From Candidatus Woesearchaeota archaeon (GTDB lineage: Archaea; Nanobdellota; Nanobdellia; Woesearchaeales; CG1-02-33-12), in the NCBI GenBank assembly GCA_003561825.1, contig PWVO01000017.1, forward strand, positions 1 through 30,512: 30,512 nucleotides of DNA. The letters run 5' to 3'. A program made the translations under genes and the position numbers. A model generated the notes under the pieces. It was given only the letters and a program-made list of their open reading frames with translations, was not told the origin of the DNA and did not search any database. Position 1 is the first letter of the stretch, and each line of letters begins with the position of its first letter. Positions 277 to 28,500 of this stretch are shown here, piece by piece.

Positions 277-560
277 AAGCTTGACCATTTTCGTCAAGTT
301 GACGCCAGGCTAATCAAGCTTGGAAACCCGTTTCGACGGCGACGATGAGAGTATAGGAATTCTAATCCGCATATGTATTCCATTGTCGTCGTCGATCTAA
401 CAACCTGGCGCAAGGCACATGAAAGCTTGCAAATGATGAGAGTCGCGCAAGCTTGCACATTTACAACGTGTTGAAGCCAAGCGGATCTGGCCCTCGACAC
501 CAAAGATCTCCATCGTCGCGGAATGCCCGTGTGGGTAGCCGGGATGAGAAACACACGGGA
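277..560 (+). ncRNA. Candidate structured non-coding RNA
   Basis: Nested stems with G-U pairs: 333-347/381-395 (15 bp), 303-309/404-410, 423-430/447-454; no convincing + strand ORF. Confidence 0.35.
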
Positions 561-568
561 GGATGAAA

Positions 569-871
569 ATGCCAAAGAACAACAAGCTCAATGATCTGAT
601 CAAGTCCGACGAGCTTTCGTCCGTACACGTAATCGGGCCGCTAAGATCAGAGGCGGCGGGCCTGATTAACTATTGGGGAGAGTTTAACGGCGGAAGGGTC
701 GCCCAACAGGGAATTCTCCTCTTCCACTTTGCAGCGTTGGTAGAAGTGGAAGCCGTGGGTATTGATGAACTCCACGGCAACGCTGTAATGGTCAATCGCT
801 TCTACGATTTGACTCTGGAAACCGAAGGCAAGTTTGCAGCCGACCGCTATCTTAACCAGCCGTATCTGTAA
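569..871 (+). CDS. Hypothetical protein
   Basis: GGAGG at 558-562, 6 nt before ATG 569. Confidence 0.7.
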   Translation: MPKNNKLNDLIKSDELSSVHVIGPLRSEAAGLINYWGEFNGGRVAQQGILLFHFAALVEVEAVGIDELHGNAVMVNRFYDLTLETEGKFAADRYLNQPYL

Positions 872-10594: not shown

Positions 10595-10840
10595 ATGATT
10601 ACGAATGAGAACGTTATCAGCTTGCGCCTGGTCGTCGCCGGCCAGGATGTCCGCACCGTCAGGATGGTCGAGGGCACGACCCTCGGTCAGCTCCTTCAGA
10701 ATCACACCGACAGGGATGGCCGCACGCTGTCCCCATCCTCCGGCCAGTTCTTCGTCAACGGAGCGTCCATTAATGAGGATTACGAGTTCGTAGACGATAA
10801 TCAGATGTTGATTGTCGTGGGCGCAGTTTACAACGGGTAA
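10595..10840 (+). CDS. Ubiquitin-like (beta-grasp, ThiS/MoaD-like) modifier ending in Gly
   Basis: 81 aa; GTTLGQLL…FFVNG…YEFVDDNQMLIVVGAVYNG*; first gene of an E2/JAB/E1 cluster. Confidence 0.8.
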   Translation: MITNENVISLRLVVAGQDVRTVRMVEGTTLGQLLQNHTDRDGRTLSPSSGQFFVNGASINEDYEFVDDNQMLIVVGAVYNG

Positions 10841-10922: not shown

Positions 10923-12269
10923 ATGATAAACAGATACACTATAAAAGGCCTGTATAATTTCATCAAACAAGACCAAGCAAGAGATATAGGTTTCTATCAA
11001 TCTCAGCATAGACGTGTGGCAAGAAACTACATCGAAAGAAACCCAGATTATTGCATCAAGATGAAGACCGGCTACTACGAACATGAAGAGATGGAAGAGA
11101 AATATCCATATATTGTATTCAGCAACAAAATTCCCGGAAATTATGGTAGTACTGAGCATTGCCTGATAATGATTACACCCGAAAGGGTCTACAGCGACTA
11201 TCAATCTTGCAGTGAATGTGCAGGAGATACAATTCTGATTGTAGACCCGAGTTCAAGAAGTTTTGTGACAGGCAAGGTAAGGCCTGATGTATTTTTACAA
11301 TCAGGTCTTAGGATTTCAGATAATGGAGCATTTATCCTTCTTGATGATGGACTGAGAGAGATATATAACTTAGTAGAAAACAAATACACATTTGACTATT
11401 ATGGATGGGAAGATTTATGCTTACAGATATCCAAGAAGTACAACAAGTGCGAGAGATCTCTAGCTATAGAGTTCATCGAGCACATGCATGGAAATGAAAG
11501 AAAGTCATGTCCTGAGATTTGTGGAGATGTAAAGTCTGTAAGCTCTGATGATTTTGATATTATATATACAACAAAAAGGAGTTTTGGATTTAAGAAAAGT
11601 TTGTATATATCGGGCGTGCTCAAGAGATTCAGGTCGGTTGGACAGTACGATATAGCAGTAGAAAAAGATGTGTTTATAAGACTGATATTTAATCTCGTAA
11701 GAGATGATTATTACTCAGGCCCTCAATATGATAATAACCCAAATGCATATAACGTATATGCGCATTCATACCCTCAGACAGAGATACACCCACACATTAC
11801 AAACGATAGCAGTTGCTTGGGTAGTGTCTGCATGGACAAGGGTTCTATAAAAGAGATGTTAATGGCAGGCCAAGATGAAGCGGCAGCAATAATAGCTGCT
11901 GGAAATCTAACTTATATCAATCCAAACGATTGGTACTCATCGGAGTTTATCATTCAGAATGGCTATTATATATGCGAGTACTGTGAAGGTATACAATCTA
12001 TAGAAGACGCATTTTATTGTGATCATTGCGGGTGTTACTTCTGCGAATCACATCCAACAACCGCTTGCAGCATCTGTGGCGACGAAAGATGTGAATATTG
12101 TGGTCATAGGGCATCATGCGAAAATTGTTACATAACTATATGCTATGACTGTGTAAACTCCGGCAGAACCGGCAGATGTGATGTATGTCAAGCTGTAATC
12201 TGTAACGACTGCTACGAAAGAGACAGGACTTGTAGATACTGTGAAACAAGGGAGGATGAAAATGAGTAA
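10923..12269 (+). CDS. E2-like (UBC-fold) conjugating protein fused to a C-terminal multi-CxxC zinc-finger array
   Basis: H289-PHITNDSSCLGSVC303-MD resembles HPN…GxVCLD; nine CxxC plus one CxxH in the last ~95 aa; operon context. Confidence 0.65.
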   Translation: MINRYTIKGLYNFIKQDQARDIGFYQSQHRRVARNYIERNPDYCIKMKTGYYEHEEMEEKYPYIVFSNKIPGNYGSTEHCLIMITPERVYSDYQSCSECAGDTILIVDPSSRSFVTGKVRPDVFLQSGLRISDNGAFILLDDGLREIYNLVENKYTFDYYGWEDLCLQISKKYNKCERSLAIEFIEHMHGNERKSCPEICGDVKSVSSDDFDIIYTTKRSFGFKKSLYISGVLKRFRSVGQYDIAVEKDVFIRLIFNLVRDDYYSGPQYDNNPNAYNVYAHSYPQTEIHPHITNDSSCLGSVCMDKGSIKEMLMAGQDEAAAIIAAGNLTYINPNDWYSSEFIIQNGYYICEYCEGIQSIEDAFYCDHCGCYFCESHPTTACSICGDERCEYCGHRASCENCYITICYDCVNSGRTGRCDVCQAVICNDCYERDRTCRYCETREDENE

Positions 12270-13182
12270 AATAGAAGATCTTATGAAAATGCTACTTGAA
12301 ATAATTGAGACAAGCAAGACAGTAAAAGAGAAAGAAGCAAAGGTTGTAAAGCCTCCTCCCAGAGAGGCTAATCCAGACGTAGGAGATAGAACACTAATCA
12401 TAAGCGATGAAGTGGTTAGAAGTCTCCTTACAGCTGCATATCTCGTTGGGGATATCGAGCTGAATGGACTTGGTTTGGTATCAGAGAATGACGGCGAGAT
12501 TCTCTGGGAGAAAGCATGGGTTCTCTCGGACATAGATGGATTAAAAGACAATGGCGAAAGAAGGCCGTCTGGGTCATCCGTTGCTGTAAAGATGGACCCG
12601 GAACAAATGGCGGTTAAGATTGCAGAAGTCGTAGAGATGGGAAGAAGCCCACGAGATTTAAGATTGTACTGGCATACACATGGGATCTGGTCAAGCTTCT
12701 TTTCGAGTACAGATCTAAAAGCAATTCAAGGGGAAGTAGAGTTTGCAGGGGGGAATGAAATCATCAACGTAGTTTTTGTTCCTGGCAGCTTTGATGCCAG
12801 GATAGATAGCGGTCTTGGGGATGATAAATCCGCCGAGACAATAGGAACCATAAAGATGGAGGGTGAAAATGAGAAATATAGAGTCGTTGGGAATGTTCAG
12901 TCGTCAAAGTTACATCTGTCAACCATCCAGACTGCCGGAAGTCAGTATGATTGGGGCCGGGCACCTGGGAAGCATGATAGCCTTTGGTCTCAGTCAGATT
13001 GGCGTCGGGGCCAAGACAACACAGGAGGAGAGTTCGCTGGTTGTCTCCTCGAGGAACTCGATGAATTGTGCCCAGACTGTGGAGGGTTCATCGAAGAAGT
13101 TGATATTGGGGAGTGGGGAAAGATCTGCTGCGACTGCGGCAGAATCATGGGTGGCGAGCTGGATGGAATCAAACTATTCTAA
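12262..13182 (+). CDS. JAB/MPN+ metalloprotease (deconjugase) with a C-terminal zinc ribbon
   Basis: WHTHGIWSSFFSSTD = HxH-x7-S-x2-D; upstream Glu in IELNG; GGAGG SD 6 nt before ATG 12262. Confidence 0.9.
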   Translation: MSKIEDLMKMLLEIIETSKTVKEKEAKVVKPPPREANPDVGDRTLIISDEVVRSLLTAAYLVGDIELNGLGLVSENDGEILWEKAWVLSDIDGLKDNGERRPSGSSVAVKMDPEQMAVKIAEVVEMGRSPRDLRLYWHTHGIWSSFFSSTDLKAIQGEVEFAGGNEIINVVFVPGSFDARIDSGLGDDKSAETIGTIKMEGENEKYRVVGNVQSSKLHLSTIQTAGSQYDWGRAPGKHDSLWSQSDWRRGQDNTGGEFAGCLLEELDELCPDCGGFIEEVDIGEWGKICCDCGRIMGGELDGIKLF

Positions 13183-13744
13183 TCTATTAGAAGCTATTAA
13201 GTCGTCATGCATTGTTATCTTTGACGATGACATAGTGAACTTGCACAATGTAGCAGCATCATACTATACACGAAAACAATCTATATTACAGATGCCAAAG
13301 GCGCAGGCAATGGTCGAGAACATGAATGCACTTATGGATGTAAATGTTCTCGGTATAAAAGCCAAGGTTCCATCAGGTTTACCGGTGTCGTATGCAGTAA
13401 AACCAGTGGTAATCATTAGTACAGATTCCAGGAGATCCAGGGTCCTCTTCTGGAGCCACGTCAAGAGAGAAGATGATGTTGAACTCCTTATAGATGCCAG
13501 GTCAGGTTGGGATGTAACATCTATCCATACATGCAAGATGGACGATGGTAGAAGCCGTCAGGCGTACAGTGATAGTCTAGAAGCAGAAGGCGGCAATATA
13601 CCATGTTCTGCTAGAGCAGTGGGTTATAACAGCATTGGTGTAGCTGCCAACGTAGCTGCAATTGTAAAGAGCTATGCTAATAACGAGACATTTCCAAGTT
13701 ACATAATGCAGGACTATAAAACATGGTCTAATATAATTGTGTAA
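12869..13744 (+). CDS. ThiF/E1-family activating enzyme with a 66-aa insertion
   Basis: FSRQ, IGAGHLGS, FDDDIVNLHN, IDARSG, candidate catalytic Cys in NIPCSAR; GGAGG at 12858-12862. Confidence 0.85.
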   Translation: MRNIESLGMFSRQSYICQPSRLPEVSMIGAGHLGSMIAFGLSQIGVGAKTTQEESSLVVSSRNSMNCAQTVEGSSKKLILGSGERSAATAAESWVASWMESNYSNLLEAIKSSCIVIFDDDIVNLHNVAASYYTRKQSILQMPKAQAMVENMNALMDVNVLGIKAKVPSGLPVSYAVKPVVIISTDSRRSRVLFWSHVKREDDVELLIDARSGWDVTSIHTCKMDDGRSRQAYSDSLEAEGGNIPCSARAVGYNSIGVAANVAAIVKSYANNETFPSYIMQDYKTWSNIIV

Positions 13745-13755
13745 GGAGAATAACA

Positions 13756-14379
13756 ATGGAAATCACAGCAGTTGCTTTGCACAAATGCGCCATTGTGCAT
13801 TACGGATTGAGGGCAGTATTAGAAGAGAAGTACGACTGTAACCTTCTAGGCGCTGTAAGTGCTGGTGAAGCTCAAATGCACATGAGAAGTTATGCATGTA
13901 ACATCATGTTCATAGAGCTTCCAGAATTCACAAGCAGTGTAGCAAGCTTTACATCTTCACTGCCTGTAATCTGTCTTTCTGACAGCTCGAAAGTAGATAT
14001 CCTGCAAGACGCGATTAGCCTTGGCGCATCAGGTTATTTACTTATGTCAGACGAGATAGATGAATACTATATAGTATTAGAATCGGCATTAAAAGGCAAA
14101 CTTAGAGCACGATCAGAGGACGTAAAAAGACTAATAAATAAGTTAGAAGAGAATCGGCGCGTGAGCACAGAAGCGTTATCAGATCTAACGTCACGAGAAG
14201 TAGATGTATTAGAGCTTCTCGTGCAAGGGAAAGATAACAAAGAGATAGCAGATGAGTTATCAATAGCGTATGGAACGGCAAGAAATAAAGTCTGGCAAAT
14301 ACTCTCTAAAACCCATCAACCCAATAGAACTGCTCTAGCACTGTGGGCAGTTGAAAACAACATAGTAGATAGAGAGTAA
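13756..14379 (+). CDS. NarL/LuxR-family regulator with a degenerate receiver domain
   Basis: LTSREVDVLELLVQGKDNKEIADELSIAYGTARN HTH; REC-like N-terminus lacking the phospho-Asp and the Lys. Confidence 0.85.
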   Translation: MEITAVALHKCAIVHYGLRAVLEEKYDCNLLGAVSAGEAQMHMRSYACNIMFIELPEFTSSVASFTSSLPVICLSDSSKVDILQDAISLGASGYLLMSDEIDEYYIVLESALKGKLRARSEDVKRLINKLEENRRVSTEALSDLTSREVDVLELLVQGKDNKEIADELSIAYGTARNKVWQILSKTHQPNRTALALWAVENNIVDRE

Positions 14380-14381
14380 GC

Positions 14382-15218
14382 ATGGAGAATGTTGACTTTG
14401 GTGGAGTAATCGGCCAGCAACAGGCCAAAAACCTTCTGGTTCGTGCTAAAGAGAATAGGATGAACATCTTATTCGTTGCACCACCAGGGTACGGAAAAAC
14501 TCTATTGGCTCGGAAATACTTAGAATCATTTAACTCATCCATTGTAGAAATAAACGGCACAGAGAAAATAAGCAATATAGTAGAGAAGATTAATAAAAAC
14601 TCTGACAAACCCATCTTGATAGATGAAGCACATAAGATGAGAGGGTCGGAAGCGATATATAAACATCTTGATGGAGAAGTTGAGAGAAGACCAACATTTG
14701 AAGATCTTACATTAGATATAACTGATATTGATCTAAGTATCATCTTTGCATTAGCTACTACTGACGAGGGCAGATTAACAGATGCTCTTGTTAGCAGATT
14801 AGTAAAAGTAGCATTAAGACCCTACAGTCATGATGACTTAGTAGAAATAGCTAAGCTAGAACACAAACACAAAAAAGATGTTTTAGCTGAAATAGCAACA
14901 TTAGCTAGAGGGAATCCAAGGAGGGTCAAGTTATTGTCAAAACTGCTTTCAGGTAGATCGCTTAAGAGTGGTCGAGATGTACAATCTCAGTTACAACTAC
15001 TGGGACTGCCAATGGGATTAGATGCAAGAGAAAGTAGGATGATGAAAATATTAGTGAGCAAGCCAAGAGGTATAAGTACTATAGCTGGTTTAATGTCAAC
15101 AGATTCTCATACAATTAGGATGATAGAAAGCGACCTCATACAGTCTGGGCTAGTAGAGGTTACATCGAAAGGTAGATCTCTTACAAGTGATGGCATCGAG
15201 GTCGCAAAGGAGTTGTGA
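14382..15218 (+). CDS. ruvB: RuvB-like AAA+ ATPase (compact)
   Basis: Walker A APPGYGKT, Walker B IDEAH, ATT, SR, RGNPR, GLD, winged-helix tail ESDLIQSGLVEVTSKGR. Confidence 0.75.
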   Translation: MENVDFGGVIGQQQAKNLLVRAKENRMNILFVAPPGYGKTLLARKYLESFNSSIVEINGTEKISNIVEKINKNSDKPILIDEAHKMRGSEAIYKHLDGEVERRPTFEDLTLDITDIDLSIIFALATTDEGRLTDALVSRLVKVALRPYSHDDLVEIAKLEHKHKKDVLAEIATLARGNPRRVKLLSKLLSGRSLKSGRDVQSQLQLLGLPMGLDARESRMMKILVSKPRGISTIAGLMSTDSHTIRMIESDLIQSGLVEVTSKGRSLTSDGIEVAKEL

Positions 15219-24623: not shown

Positions 24624-24895
24624 TTTACACTATAGGTTACGCAGAACATTACGAGAAACAATTTAAAGAAAGCGAAGCACAAGGCAAACCTCTCATAAAA
24701 ATAGGGCGCACCATAGATTACAATGGCGGGTCTGTCTGGCGCACACGCGAAGAAGCACAAAGCTACTTAGACGGACGGGGCATGCATGAATACTCTGTAT
24801 ACGGAGTCCTGGCTGATTGGGACAGGGATACAGAAGGAAACAAATATCATTCATTCAATAATTTATTAGTTAATTCGGAGTTAGTAAAGATTTAA
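24620..24895 (+). CDS. Hypothetical protein
   Basis: ATGA coupled. Confidence 0.7.
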   Translation: MIYTIGYAEHYEKQFKESEAQGKPLIKIGRTIDYNGGSVWRTREEAQSYLDGRGMHEYSVYGVLADWDRDTEGNKYHSFNNLLVNSELVKI

Positions 24896-27800
24896 TGTTA
24901 ACAGGAAACCAAAAAGAGGTATTTACAAGAAGATACGTTAGGAAAGACGCACAAGGAAATCCTATAGAAACAGTAGAAGATGTATTCCACAGAGTCGCAC
25001 TCAACGTAGGTATAGTAGAAAGACAGTGGCACGACGACAATGAAGTAGAAAAAACAATTAAAGACTTCGAGTCCATGCTATCCGACATGGAATTCCTCCC
25101 CAATTCCCCAACGTGGACAGGCGCAGGGACTCCACTAGGTTTACTTTCAGCATGCTTTGTGCTTCCAGTAGAAGACGACATGGGACGCAAGCGCGGTGGC
25201 ATCTTTGACACGCTTAAAGATATGGCATTAATATTCCAGACCGGAGGAGGTATAGGACTATCATTAAGCAAGCTACGACCAGATGGTGCATACATCAGCA
25301 CGTCAGGCGGTAAGGCTACAGGGCCAGTAGGATTTCTAAAAGTATTCGATAAAGCATCAGAAGTGATTTCGCAGGGAGGATGCTTAACACCAGATACTCT
25401 AGTATTTACTGATAAGGGCATGCTACGCCTTGACGAGATCATTCCTAACCCTAAAGAGGGATGGGGCAATCACAGTATAAAGGTTGCCACTGATGAAGGT
25501 GTAAAACGATCTCCAGCATTCTATAACAATGGTATATCCAAGACCCTCAAAGTTTACACCAATTCGGGTATCAGTATCGCGGGAACGCCAGACCACAAAG
25601 TCAAATTGATGACTAAAAACGGTCTCCTGTGGAAAGAGATAAAGCATCTGCAAAAGGGCGATTACATAGCGATAAAGCTGGGAGAGCACACAGGGCACAA
25701 GCAAGAGCTAGATCATCCAACTATAACTCACCACAACCAAATCGAGCCCACCTTCCCAAATACACTGAACAAAGACCTAGCATTCTTTCTAGGCTACTTA
25801 ACCGGAAATGGATTCGTCGCATCTAATGAAGGTGATTACAGAGTGGGTGTCACAGTTCCTCATAAATCATACCTAATGAAAGAGATGCCACGGCTTATAA
25901 CATCCCTGTTCAGCGTACCAGTCTATCGCAGTGTGGACAAGGGCAATAGCTCCACAACCCTTATCGTTCACAATCGTGCTCTCAAAGAGTTTCTTGAAAT
26001 GAATGACTTGGATAAAAAGGACAGTCTCACAGCCCGCATCCCCAAGAAGATACGCATGAGTCCAAAGAGTATCTTAGGTGTATACCTGCAAGGACTGTTT
26101 GAAGCTGACGGGTCTTTATGTCATGGATACCCACAGCTAAATACATCGTCACACAGACTTGCCAATGAGATAGCTACAATGCTAATTGGCCTCGGGTGCC
26201 CCGTAAACATCAGGGCTCGCCAGCCATCTAAAAACCGTTGGGGTGACAGTACATCCTATTTTGTTAGGCCGAAATCACACATTGGACTTAATTCTTACAG
26301 AAAGTATGTTCCCTGCCACAAAGAATCACGTTTTATGGCAGTCGAGGATCATAAGCCAGATCTCTCCAGAGAGCAGTCTTACCGCCTGCCATATCCGAAT
26401 CAGTGGATAGGTAAAGTCCTAAACCTGGTAACACGAAAAGAGTACCCACGTCTTAGAAAGAGTTTGCTGCGGTACAGAAGGGGCAGTAGAAACCTTACTG
26501 TATCTGCATATAAGTCGCTGTCGCAAGACTATGAGGTCTTTAGAAATAACGCAATGCCAGTAGATAATATCTGGTTTGTTGAGGTTACAAAAGTGGAGCC
26601 CGCTGGCGAGTCACTGACACTAGATCTGGAGGTTGAAGACAATCATACGTATTTAGCCAATGGCATCATAACACATAACCCTCGCCGGGGCGCTGGCATG
26701 GCAGTACTCCGTTACGACCATCCTGACATCTTAGATTTTATCACTTGCAAACAGTCCGAAAACGACATCACAAACTTTAACATTTCAGTAGCAGTAGACA
26801 ATGATTTCATGACAGCGGTTAAAGAAGACTTAGAGATAGCATTAATAAACCCCCAGGACGGTAAGGTCTGGGATAATATCAGTGCTAGATCTATAATGAA
26901 CGCTATAACCTCTAATGCTGTCAACAATGGCGAACCAGGGCTTTTATTTTTAGACAGAGCAAATGAAGACAACCCATGCCCGTCACTAGGCAGTTATCAT
27001 GCTACAAACCCTTGCGGTGAGCAGTTTCTCAAACCCTATCAAAACTGCTGCTTAGGTACAATCAACTTAGTCAAACATCTCGACTCGAACAACAAAATAA
27101 ATTACGAGAAACTAAACAGAACAATTAAGCTAGGAGTCCGCTTTCTCGACGATGTTATTGACGCTAACAAATACATCAAATCCATACCCGAACTAGAAGA
27201 GAAAGCAAAGGAAACACGCAGAATCGGCCTCGGTATCACAGGACTTGCAGACGTTCTTTACCTTAACAATATAAGATATGGCAGTGAAGAAGCTGTAAGT
27301 TTTATAACGAATTTAATGATGGATATAAGAGCTACAGCAATAGAGACGAGTGTTGAGTTAGCACAAGTACGAGGGCCATTTCCTGCATTTGAAGAAAGTA
27401 TATACGTAACAGATGAATGGTATAAAAACATCAACAAAAAAGGCCCTTTTGAATACTTAAGATCTCATTTTACGAAAATAGGAATCCGTAATGCCACACA
27501 GCTCACAATAGCCCCGACAGGAACGAGGTCAACTATCGCTGGTGTAGAAGGTTATGGATGCGAACCTGTATTTGCCCTTGCATACACCAGAATGCTAGTA
27601 GAACGAGAAGGCGACGTAGAACTCCAATATACTAGCCCATTGTTTAAGCAAGCATTAATTGATGAAGGCATAGAAGGAAATGAGTTAGAACGCATCCTCA
27701 ACGACGTTTCCAAGACTGGCAGCTGTCAAGGCGTAGAAGGCATACCTCAACACATCAAAGATGTTTATGTTGTATCACGCGATATAACTCCTAAAGAACA

Positions 27801-28500
27801 TGTAGACATGCAGGCTGCAGCACAATCGTGGATAGATAGCAGTATATCGAAGACTATCAACTGTCCCGAAGGTACAACAAAAGAAGATATAGAAGAAATA
27901 TTTAATTACGCTTGGCAAAAGAGATGCAAGGGGATTACCGTTTACGTAGCCAACTCGAGAGAAAAAACAGTGCTACAAACAAATAACGAAAAAGACGAAG
28001 GCCCCATAAATAACGTCGAAACACTATACGAACGTCCATTAGAGCTTACTGGAAAAACTATACGCCAACCAACACCATTAGGTACAGCTTTCGTTACACT
28101 AAACTACAATGAAGAAGACGAACCATTCGAGGTCTTCGTAAACATTGGTCGCGCAGGTTCTGACGTATCCGCTGTCGCCGAAGGACTTGGCCGACTAATA
28201 TCCCTTATCCTAAGAATCCCGCCAAACATGGATTCCAAGTCAAGACTCAAGCACGTCGTAGAACAGCTGAAAGGCATAGGCGGTGGAAACCCATTAGGAT
28301 TCGGCAAGAACCGCATCAGAAGCCTGCCTGATGGTGTAGCAGAGGTCTTAGGGAAACAACTAGGTATTATCGACTACAACGGTTGTGGGTGCGACGAGAC
28401 ATTAGAAACACTAGACCTTTGCCCAGAATGCGGCAACGCTTCACTAATAACATCAGAGGGATGTAGCCACTGTAAGCTATGCGGATTTAACAAGTGCTAA
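24895..28500 (+). CDS. nrdJ: Adenosylcobalamin-dependent (class II) ribonucleotide reductase with intein
   Basis: PNSPT, SACFV, TNPCGEQ, NCCLGTINL, IAPTG, ISKTIN, TSCPD-like C-terminal domain and CPECG…CKLC. Confidence 0.92.
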   Translation: MLTGNQKEVFTRRYVRKDAQGNPIETVEDVFHRVALNVGIVERQWHDDNEVEKTIKDFESMLSDMEFLPNSPTWTGAGTPLGLLSACFVLPVEDDMGRKRGGIFDTLKDMALIFQTGGGIGLSLSKLRPDGAYISTSGGKATGPVGFLKVFDKASEVISQGGCLTPDTLVFTDKGMLRLDEIIPNPKEGWGNHSIKVATDEGVKRSPAFYNNGISKTLKVYTNSGISIAGTPDHKVKLMTKNGLLWKEIKHLQKGDYIAIKLGEHTGHKQELDHPTITHHNQIEPTFPNTLNKDLAFFLGYLTGNGFVASNEGDYRVGVTVPHKSYLMKEMPRLITSLFSVPVYRSVDKGNSSTTLIVHNRALKEFLEMNDLDKKDSLTARIPKKIRMSPKSILGVYLQGLFEADGSLCHGYPQLNTSSHRLANEIATMLIGLGCPVNIRARQPSKNRWGDSTSYFVRPKSHIGLNSYRKYVPCHKESRFMAVEDHKPDLSREQSYRLPYPNQWIGKVLNLVTRKEYPRLRKSLLRYRRGSRNLTVSAYKSLSQDYEVFRNNAMPVDNIWFVEVTKVEPAGESLTLDLEVEDNHTYLANGIITHNPRRGAGMAVLRYDHPDILDFITCKQSENDITNFNISVAVDNDFMTAVKEDLEIALINPQDGKVWDNISARSIMNAITSNAVNNGEPGLLFLDRANEDNPCPSLGSYHATNPCGEQFLKPYQNCCLGTINLVKHLDSNNKINYEKLNRTIKLGVRFLDDVIDANKYIKSIPELEEKAKETRRIGLGITGLADVLYLNNIRYGSEEAVSFITNLMMDIRATAIETSVELAQVRGPFPAFEESIYVTDEWYKNINKKGPFEYLRSHFTKIGIRNATQLTIAPTGTRSTIAGVEGYGCEPVFALAYTRMLVEREGDVELQYTSPLFKQALIDEGIEGNELERILNDVSKTGSCQGVEGIPQHIKDVYVVSRDITPKEHVDMQAAAQSWIDSSISKTINCPEGTTKEDIEEIFNYAWQKRCKGITVYVANSREKTVLQTNNEKDEGPINNVETLYERPLELTGKTIRQPTPLGTAFVTLNYNEEDEPFEVFVNIGRAGSDVSAVAEGLGRLISLILRIPPNMDSKSRLKHVVEQLKGIGGGNPLGFGKNRIRSLPDGVAEVLGKQLGIIDYNGCGCDETLETLDLCPECGNASLITSEGCSHCKLCGFNKC
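25381..26679 (+). mobile_element. Intein (433 aa) with a LAGLIDADG endonuclease; +1 residue is Pro
   Basis: QGG|CLTPDT…YLANGIITHN|PRRGA; LAGLIDADG-like blocks FFLGYLTGNG and YLQGLFEADG. Confidence 0.93.

Follow-up and report, generated by a model that had tools for sequence, protein, structure and literature searches.

Operons combining E1, E2, JAB and ubiquitin-like proteins (Ubl) were grouped into classes 6a-6e by Iyer, Burroughs and Aravind (PMC1779556). Among related systems, the Bil operon consists of BilABCD, where the E1 (BilD) has several domains and contains a structural zinc site (10.1101/2023.09.26.559546). In Type I Bub operons, BubCD is a single-frame fusion of a JAB/JAMM peptidase with E1, and the Bub E1 lacks a catalytic cysteine, having a tyrosine instead (Ye et al. 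2024, PMC11601596). The stretch of DNA analyzed here, referred to as the window, is the whole of contig PWVO01000017.1 (30.5 kb), part of a 1.1-Mb metagenomic bin (GCA_003561825.1, Candidatus Woesearchaeota archaeon) from a salt-lake metagenome. Judged by sequence, it carries a divergent phage-borne Ubl-E2-JAB-E1 operon of a previously unannotated lineage, in which the JAB gene and a minimal E1 gene overlap over 314 nucleotides (nt) in different reading frames. This overlap is very probably genuine and conserved, with two separate proteins encoded by one stretch of DNA.

Like Bil and classes 6a-6e, the window system brings four activities (Ubl, E2-like, JAB and E1) together in one operon on a mobile genome. 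It differs from Bil in being carried by a phage and not located in a defence island, and its E1 is a single domain of ~225 residues without CxxC pairs, unlike BilD. The PADLOC models for Bil and CBASS gave no significant match, and the window E1 had no BilD hit. As in Bub, the peptidase and the E1 are genetically inseparable. Unlike BubCD, they are encoded in two frames with two start sites, and the E1 frame is closed by a stop codon before the E1 ATG. The window E1 also retains an invariant cysteine (in the motif PCSARAV), unlike the Bub E1. DUF6527 (BubE) was found in none of the six or seven window proteins scanned against Pfam, in which no search was aimed at DUF6527 itself.

Out-of-frame overprinted gene pairs in phages include lambda Rz/Rz1 and the overlaps of phiX174. 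In double-stranded DNA phages, two ancient enzyme genes rarely overlap out of frame over a long stretch. The JAB/E1 locus resembles overprinted viral and phage pairs (reviewed in PMC8227390 and PMC3494269) in that two proteins share one strand in different frames, overprinted parts tend to disorder, and annotation pipelines miss or truncate one partner. It departs from such pairs in that neither gene is embedded in, or wholly younger than, the other; two old enzyme genes interpenetrate at their ends. In the same comparison, it is also distinguished by a predicted swap of ordered and disordered roles and by a Rossmann fold that had to take up a new insert, and the overlap does not shorten the genome.

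The JAB/JAMM peptidase gene (12262..13182, plus strand) is an open reading frame (ORF) for 306 amino acids (aa) that ends in a TAA stop at 13180-13182. The mini-E1 gene, which encodes a ThiF-family adenylyltransferase of 291 aa (12869..13744, plus strand), is read in the frame one base downstream of JAB, and the dual-coding overlap spans 12869..13182 of the plus strand. The E1 translation start lies inside the JAB coding sequence (12858..12871, plus strand) and consists of GGAGG (12858-12862), a six-base spacer and ATG (12869). A preliminary description of the locus had placed the E1 start at 12869 behind a good Shine-Dalgarno sequence, 314 nt before the JAB stop at 13182, and all of these coordinates are correct. 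Two features meet within the overlap: a clade-specific E1 insert of 66 residues (48-113; 13010..13207, plus strand) where helix A meets strand 2, and a C-terminal JAB tail that is a predicted zinc ribbon, whose two knuckles (13069..13137, plus strand) read CPDC, 15 residues, CCDC in the JAB frame (C270, C273, C289, C292).

The same architecture is present in eight further distinct loci (L002-L006, L011, L012 and L013; L014 is identical to L013), drawn from a protein-cluster collection and its contigs and representing different samples and assemblers. Searches of IMG/VR, JGI metagenome contigs, GTDB genomes and GenBank phages at the DNA or protein level returned no relatives. Overlap lengths across the nine loci are 314, 338, 359, 362, 356, 320, 443, 458 and 389 nt (range 314-458 nt); all are 2 mod 3, and the relative frame is therefore fixed. 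Identity to the window proteins is 30-56%, with minima of 33% for E1 and 30% for JAB, and the loci are far from copies of one another because third codon positions differ at ~60% of sites. In each of the eight other loci, the JAB frame crosses the E1 start and ends with CxxC...CxxC, while in every locus the E1 insert is bounded by (I/M)G(V/I/A)G at the end of helix A (IGVG in the window) and by (F/Y)D(D/P)D in strand 2. The earlier interpretation, a JAB zinc-ribbon segment lying within the E1 insert and kept open in both frames, is supported, and the arrangement holds across nine divergent loci.

An assembly or sequencing artefact, such as a chimera or a pair of compensating indels, might be suspected from the oddity of the arrangement, its only support besides the metagenomic nature of the contig. 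Such an explanation is difficult to reconcile with an architecture that recurs in nine loci, which come from a variety of samples and assemblers. The read support that the preliminary description had recommended checking is also sound: when the source run was assembled again independently, 12000-14000 was recovered in one contig at a depth of ~21, with one single-nucleotide polymorphism and no indels. The probability of an artefact is vanishingly small, and this reading is effectively refuted.

Of the six possible frames, only those of E1 and JAB are open from end to end in all nine loci. The other four, one on the plus strand and three antisense, serve as an internal control and are interrupted by stops in each of the nine. 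Across the overlap, 104-152 codons of the JAB frame are open in each locus. The significance of this openness was estimated by recoding one protein with synonymous codons and counting how often the other frame remains open. By this statistic, the other frame would be open across the whole overlap by chance with p = 0.0002-0.02 per locus. The corresponding values are p = 0.13-0.38 per locus for the JAB frame over the first 47-49 E1 codons and p = 0.02-0.15 per locus for the E1 frame over the JAB tail, giving joint probabilities over eight loci of 10^-4.8 and 10^-10.9, respectively, which are upper bounds on significance. A 60-codon antisense ORF also lies over the insert in the window (12990-13172, minus strand); since the antisense frames have stops in every locus, dual coding on the opposite (plus) strand is the probable cause of this ORF.

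Signals for independent initiation of E1 are conserved. A Shine-Dalgarno-like motif is found 5-6 bases before the E1 ATG in all nine loci (GGAGG in seven, AGGAGA in L011 and L012), and the E1 frame contains a stop codon 3-13 codons upstream of that ATG. No significant RNA structure masks the E1 start: fold z-scores range from -1.4 to +1.4, and the Shine-Dalgarno motif and AUG are mostly unpaired, leaving no such structure through which the regulatory coupling of E1 and JAB levels proposed earlier might act. The likeness of the JAB/E1 junction to the E2/JAB junction, which the preliminary description had read as one mirroring the other, was considered as a duplication or stop-loss scar and rejected. 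The shared element, GGAGGNTGAAAATG, occurs three times in the window (558-573, 12251-12266 and 12858-12873) against 0.08 expected, and again at the L002 E1 start, while the E2/JAB junctions of other loci differ from that of the window. It represents a recurrent ribosome-binding-site context and may be a strong ribosome-binding site typical of the lineage.

These initiation signals also bear on recoding, in which one or two programmed frameshifts would join the frames, yielding either a BubCD-like JAB-E1 fusion or an E1 into which the zinc ribbon is inserted as a genuine domain. Precedents for a JAB-E1 fusion come from the Type I Bub operons (PMC11601596) and from class 6e of Iyer and colleagues (PMC1779556), and with an insert divisible by three in length, two compensating shifts would restore the E1 frame. 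However, no slippery heptamer is conserved at the boundary, and the JAB stops (TAA, TAG or TGA) follow varied codons, leaving no conserved +1 context. The stop codon in the E1 frame lies so close to the ATG that there is almost no room for a fusing shift, and the strong Shine-Dalgarno motif and ATG are conserved for E1. In addition, the E1 frame is open through the insert in 9/9 loci (joint chance ~10^-11), which would be needless if ribosomes left the frame. Recoding, an alternative raised in the preliminary description, is highly improbable.

The E1 core is a single adenylation domain of ~225 residues. It contains the nucleotide-binding motif IGAGHLGS...IVIFDDD, in which G29, G34, D119 and D121 are invariant in 86 sequences. 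C246, within PCSARAV, is invariant in 86 family members and is by sequence the candidate catalytic cysteine. No CxxC pair is present in the 291 residues, so E1 has no two-CxxC structural zinc site of the kind found in ThiF, MoeB and BilD. An AlphaFold2 model built from an 86-sequence alignment (mean predicted local distance difference test score, pLDDT, of 88.2) matches ThiF (1zud/1zfn) and MoeB (1jw9) structures with a template modelling (TM) score by target of 0.77 and a probability of 1.00.

The insert divides this core at a site that is otherwise tightly conserved in length. The splitting of the Rossmann motif by 66 residues (13010-13207), with IGAGHLGS...IGVG on one side and IVIFDDD on the other, is confirmed, as is the statement that the two parts normally lie a few residues apart in ThiF enzymes: the distance is 1-5 residues in solved E1s and, in alignments, in ~80 insert-less relatives. 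The insert measures 65-81 residues across the nine loci. The family profile aligns without gaps across the insert site to UBA5, ThiF and MoeB. In the window E1, the Pfam ThiF match is split by the insert and covers residues 115-192 only, and the NCBIfam ThiF models match separately at 21-48 and 107-218; in an insert-less relative the match is unbroken. The window E1 therefore departs from the superfamily norm of a very short turn between helix A and strand 2, a change of architecture and not a ground for exclusion.

A profile search of 1.8 billion representative proteins returned 1918 family members. Beyond the near relatives, most of these are ~215-235 aa long, with the two matching stretches abutting. 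Three longer members (P0035, P0081 and P0153) were considered as JAB-E1 fusions and rejected, as they contain tandem ThiF domains. In a tree of 88 E1 sequences from which the insert columns had been removed, the nine insert-bearing E1s form one clade, with a Shimodaira-Hasegawa-like approximate likelihood ratio test (SH-aLRT) value of 97 and an insert-less sister group, a pattern consistent with a single origin of the insert. Outside this clade the insert is lacking, and every E1 that has it also carries the second frame; similar inserts with no second frame, which the preliminary description had named as grounds for rejection, are not seen.

Gene callers routinely hide such overlaps. In four of the six loci counted, E1 is cut to 179-216 aa, and the range over most loci is 171-216 aa; examples are P0001 (193 aa), P0004-P0006 and P0011. 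The truncated E1 calls begin after the JAB stop, and the ATP-binding motif is lost. Further family hits of 140-190 residues start at profile position ~117-150 (P0016, P0020, P0022, P0031 and others), and these short hits may hide more instances of the same overlap.

Structural modeling divides the insert into two parts. Model confidence in the E1 core is ~92 or more, with pLDDT values of 94-98 for residues 11-40 and 79 for the first ten residues. Residues 50-90 fall to 43-51 and are predicted to form a disordered loop. Values return to ~88 over residues 91-113, where the model places a strand (92-95) and a helix (106-112) immediately ahead of strand 2. The last ~23 insert residues are conserved in the E1 frame, predicted to be ordered, and reach past the JAB stop. 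The earlier characterization of all 66 residues as Ser-rich does not extend to these last ~23, which are not filler.

A further explanation for the insert is an intervening element, such as an intron, a bypassed segment or a mobile RNA or DNA element, that is removed or skipped to give an E1 protein without the loop. The insert does lie exactly where relatives have 1-5 residues, with a sharp boundary, and like many mobile introns it contains an ORF read in a different frame. Yet no Rfam family matches 12000-14000 even at E <= 1, and there is no conserved structure: the consensus energy is -3.8 kcal/mol, with an unfavourable covariation term. At 198 nt, the segment is short for a group I intron. 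Removal of the insert would also leave unexplained why the E1 frame stays open through inserts of 65-81 codons in 9/9 loci, and why its ordered final part is conserved in that frame beyond the JAB stop. An excised RNA element, as the preliminary description had entertained, is extremely improbable.

JAB is composed of a JAB domain (~40-205), a disordered linker (212-267) and the C-terminal four-cysteine zinc ribbon (268-306). Its Pfam Prok-JAB match (PF14464) scores 18 bits (E = 0.0027), below the cutoff of 25. The metal-binding and catalytic motif E(LNG)...WHTHG...SSTD is conserved in the seven full-length homologues. An AlphaFold2 model from a nine-sequence alignment (mean pLDDT 66.8) has the MPN fold and matches Rpn11 and Pyrococcus JAMM1 (5ld9/5lda) with TM scores by target of 0.77-0.78. 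JAB is classed as a divergent member of the JAB/JAMM/MPN+ metallopeptidases. The pLDDT is 70-92 in the domain (~40-205), below 50 in the linker (212-267) and 68-74 in the tail (268-306), where three short strands are modeled. FoldIndex gave a crude indication of disorder only and is superseded by AlphaFold2.

The JAB tail follows the pattern CxxC-x12-19-CxxC (x15 in the window), and all four cysteines are invariant in 9/9 loci, in agreement with the zinc ribbon originally recognized at 13069-13137. The fold is predicted at moderate confidence, and zinc binding is putative. Because the window JAB frame lacks any internal ATG from the E1 start to the second zinc knuckle, the ribbon can only be produced as a portion of JAB. 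A copy of the Cys-rich C-terminus of the E2-like protein was considered as a source of the ribbon and rejected, as BLASTP similarity between the two is not significant (best E = 0.68).

To measure selection along the overlap, the six closest loci were aligned by codon, and divergence at each codon position (1/2/3) was averaged over all pairs. In zone A (12869..13009, plus strand), which encodes E1 residues 1-47 (strand 1, GxGxxG and helix A), E1 is ordered and conserved. Its divergence is 0.34/0.29/0.61 with an amino-acid difference of 0.42, close to the values for non-overlapped E1 (0.37/0.25/0.64 and 0.43). The JAB reading of the same DNA is a disordered, poorly conserved linker, with divergence of 0.58/0.43/0.43 and an amino-acid difference of 0.71. 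Over E1 residues 48-92, the coding signature at codon positions is absent from the E1 frame (0.57/0.58/0.60; amino-acid difference 0.76). From the zinc ribbon to the end of JAB, the JAB frame shows 0.46/0.40/0.53 and 0.64.

The two frames are constrained together over ~40 nt (13139..13182, plus strand), read as G-G-E-L-D-G...F-stop in JAB and W-x-A-S-W-x-E-S in E1. All three codon positions are constrained at E1 residues 93-105 (0.31/0.47/0.37; amino-acid difference 0.58). Third-position divergence in E1 falls below 0.5 only at ~residues 77-103, which coincide with the second zinc knuckle and the GELDG motif. The third-position value for residues 93-105, 0.369, is equaled by 0/170 windows of non-overlapped E1, none of which falls below 0.538. 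A local third-position dip of this kind is what a second functional reading frame usually produces. The only invariant E1 residues within the insert are A87 and W94, and their invariance follows from the JAB frame, where a Cys TGC forces GCN and an (L/M)(G/D) pair forces TGG. Selection by frame, the check suggested in the preliminary description, accordingly gives an E1 signature in zone A and invariant JAB cysteines with a third-position dip in the ribbon; each frame carries a selection signature of its own.

The same data weigh on the possibility that only E1 is functional and that the JAB extension is a tolerated, functionless read-through tail whose cysteine pattern is a by-product. Such a tail would fit the poor conservation of the JAB reading over the E1 N-terminus (amino-acid difference 0.71) and the absence of any above-threshold match to a curated zinc-ribbon family. 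Nor was a partner identified for the tail, although the prediction concerned, a JAB-E1 complex with a score of 0.00, counts neither way. What this explanation does not accommodate is the invariance of four Cys codons in nine loci exactly where E1 is free to vary (amino-acid difference 0.76), together with third positions of E1 that are uniquely constrained there. The JAB frame is moreover open for over a hundred codons in every locus, and a useless tail would vanish quickly through the many possible stop mutations. A functionless tail is very unlikely.

Reciprocal dual coding by JAB and E1 provides the best account of these observations. On the DNA, the JAB linker (12895-13062) lies over the ordered strand 1 and helix A of E1, and the JAB zinc ribbon (13063-13179) lies over the disordered E1 loop, with ~13139-13179 ordered in both frames. 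The models thus predict that order and disorder swap between the frames along the overlap. Ribosomes initiating at the JAB ATG would pass the E1 ribosome-binding site and start and continue for ~100 codons more, producing the JAB domain, a flexible linker and the zinc ribbon. Other ribosomes would begin independently at GGAGG-N6-ATG within JAB, in the frame one base downstream, and produce a complete ThiF-type E1. The enzyme requires GxGxxG and its remaining parts on a single chain, and the E1 frame is unbroken. Where E1 is folded, from strand 1 to helix A, the JAB linker would need only to avoid stops; where JAB is folded, in the zinc ribbon, the same would hold for the E1 loop.

Several points weigh against this account. 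Production of both proteins is inferred from sequence, and the window sequence itself is known from one DNA run. The loci are homologous, so the joint probabilities of open frames overstate independence. The zinc-ribbon fold is predicted at moderate confidence from a JAB model based on nine sequences, and Pfam zinc-ribbon matches to the tail are sub-threshold only. The null complex prediction is neither support nor counter-evidence. Finally, no intermediate with JAB preceding E1 and no insert was present among the loci found.

The arrangement would have arisen once, when JAB came to be read past its old stop into E1 and E1 gained a loop. Reciprocal constraint would afterwards have locked it in and made it hard to undo. 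Loss of the JAB stop codon is a plausible origin, and the recurrence of JAB upstream of, or fused to, E1 (PMC1779556) may have provided the context in which it occurred. Genome compaction is not the reason for the overlap, because E1 had to gain ~200 nt and essentially no DNA is saved.

The zinc ribbon may tether JAB to a partner or target. It is a tentative and rather doubtful proposal that this folded metal-binding domain was born de novo by overprinting in a newly acquired disordered E1 loop and that the resulting JAB/E1 gene interlock is functional. If so, the interlock could hold the JAB/E1 expression ratio constant by way of ribosomes that travel over the internal start of E1, and the JAB zinc ribbon could supply in trans the structural zinc module that the minimal E1 lacks. 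With nine divergent examples, an insert-less outgroup and an order/disorder swap between frames, the locus is an unusually clean case of two folded proteins that use the same DNA without much conflict. The birth of domains by overprinting, methods of detecting dual coding and refactoring could all be studied on this natural example. The locus also defines a phage lineage of Ubl-E2-JAB-E1 systems whose JAB bears a zinc-ribbon tail, and leaves the understanding of ubiquitin-like chemistry itself unchanged.

The nearest members of the insert-less mini-E1 family are P0007, P0009, P0010, P0012 and P0013, with P0007 encoded in the phage-like L007 and L008. These mini-E1s share the E1 core (29-34% identity), a Ubl ending in NG and a Cys-rich E2-like protein with the window system. 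L007 differs from the window in its gene order (Ubl-E2-E1-JAB), an E1 without the insert, a 685-aa JAB without a zinc-ribbon tail and the lack of a long overlap. L007 and L008 represent the one sister locus with good context, which includes SSB, DnaB and Acb5 genes. The Acb5-family gene (PF26761) lies directly after the JAB gene of this sister system (L007 8842-9105, L008 8259-8495), near DnaB and SSB.

In the window, six genes run along the plus strand in the order Ubl, E2-like, JAB, E1, a LuxR/GerE regulator and a RuvB-like ATPase. The Ubl gene (10595..10840, plus strand) is an ORF for a protein of 81 aa with a C-terminal Gly, and the equivalent position in L006, L007, L011, L012 and L013 encodes a Ubl homologue with YNG, FNG or TNG at its end. 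The E2-like gene (10923..12269, plus strand) is an ORF for a 448-aa protein with a Cys-rich C-terminal array. This protein has no match in Pfam, PHROG or NCBIfam, and its E2 label derives solely from weak leads to UQ_con and E2-CBASS clusters in a protein atlas. The E2-like proteins of the window, L006 (2152-4664), L007 (4418-5956) and L013 (1004-3289) are 401-761 aa long, lack family-library matches and have arrays of CxxC pairs at the C-terminus; in L006, two genes of this kind stand in tandem.

The LuxR/GerE-type regulator and RuvB-like AAA ATPase (13756-15218) directly follow E1 in the window, as they do in L002, L005 and L006, which belong to the window-type subclade. In L013, a LexA-like helix-turn-helix protein follows E1 in place of this pair. 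The regulator and the ATPase may work with the Ubl system as conserved partners, or may regulate it. By gene content, the contig looks phage-derived: it encodes a ribonucleotide reductase, an HNH endonuclease, two DNA methyltransferases, an RNA ligase and a transglycosylase. The large-subunit ORF of the ribonucleotide reductase (24895-28500, 1201 aa) has PHROG matches split between residues 9-168 and 578-1201, and its middle part has intein- or terminase-like matches, which fits an intein insertion.

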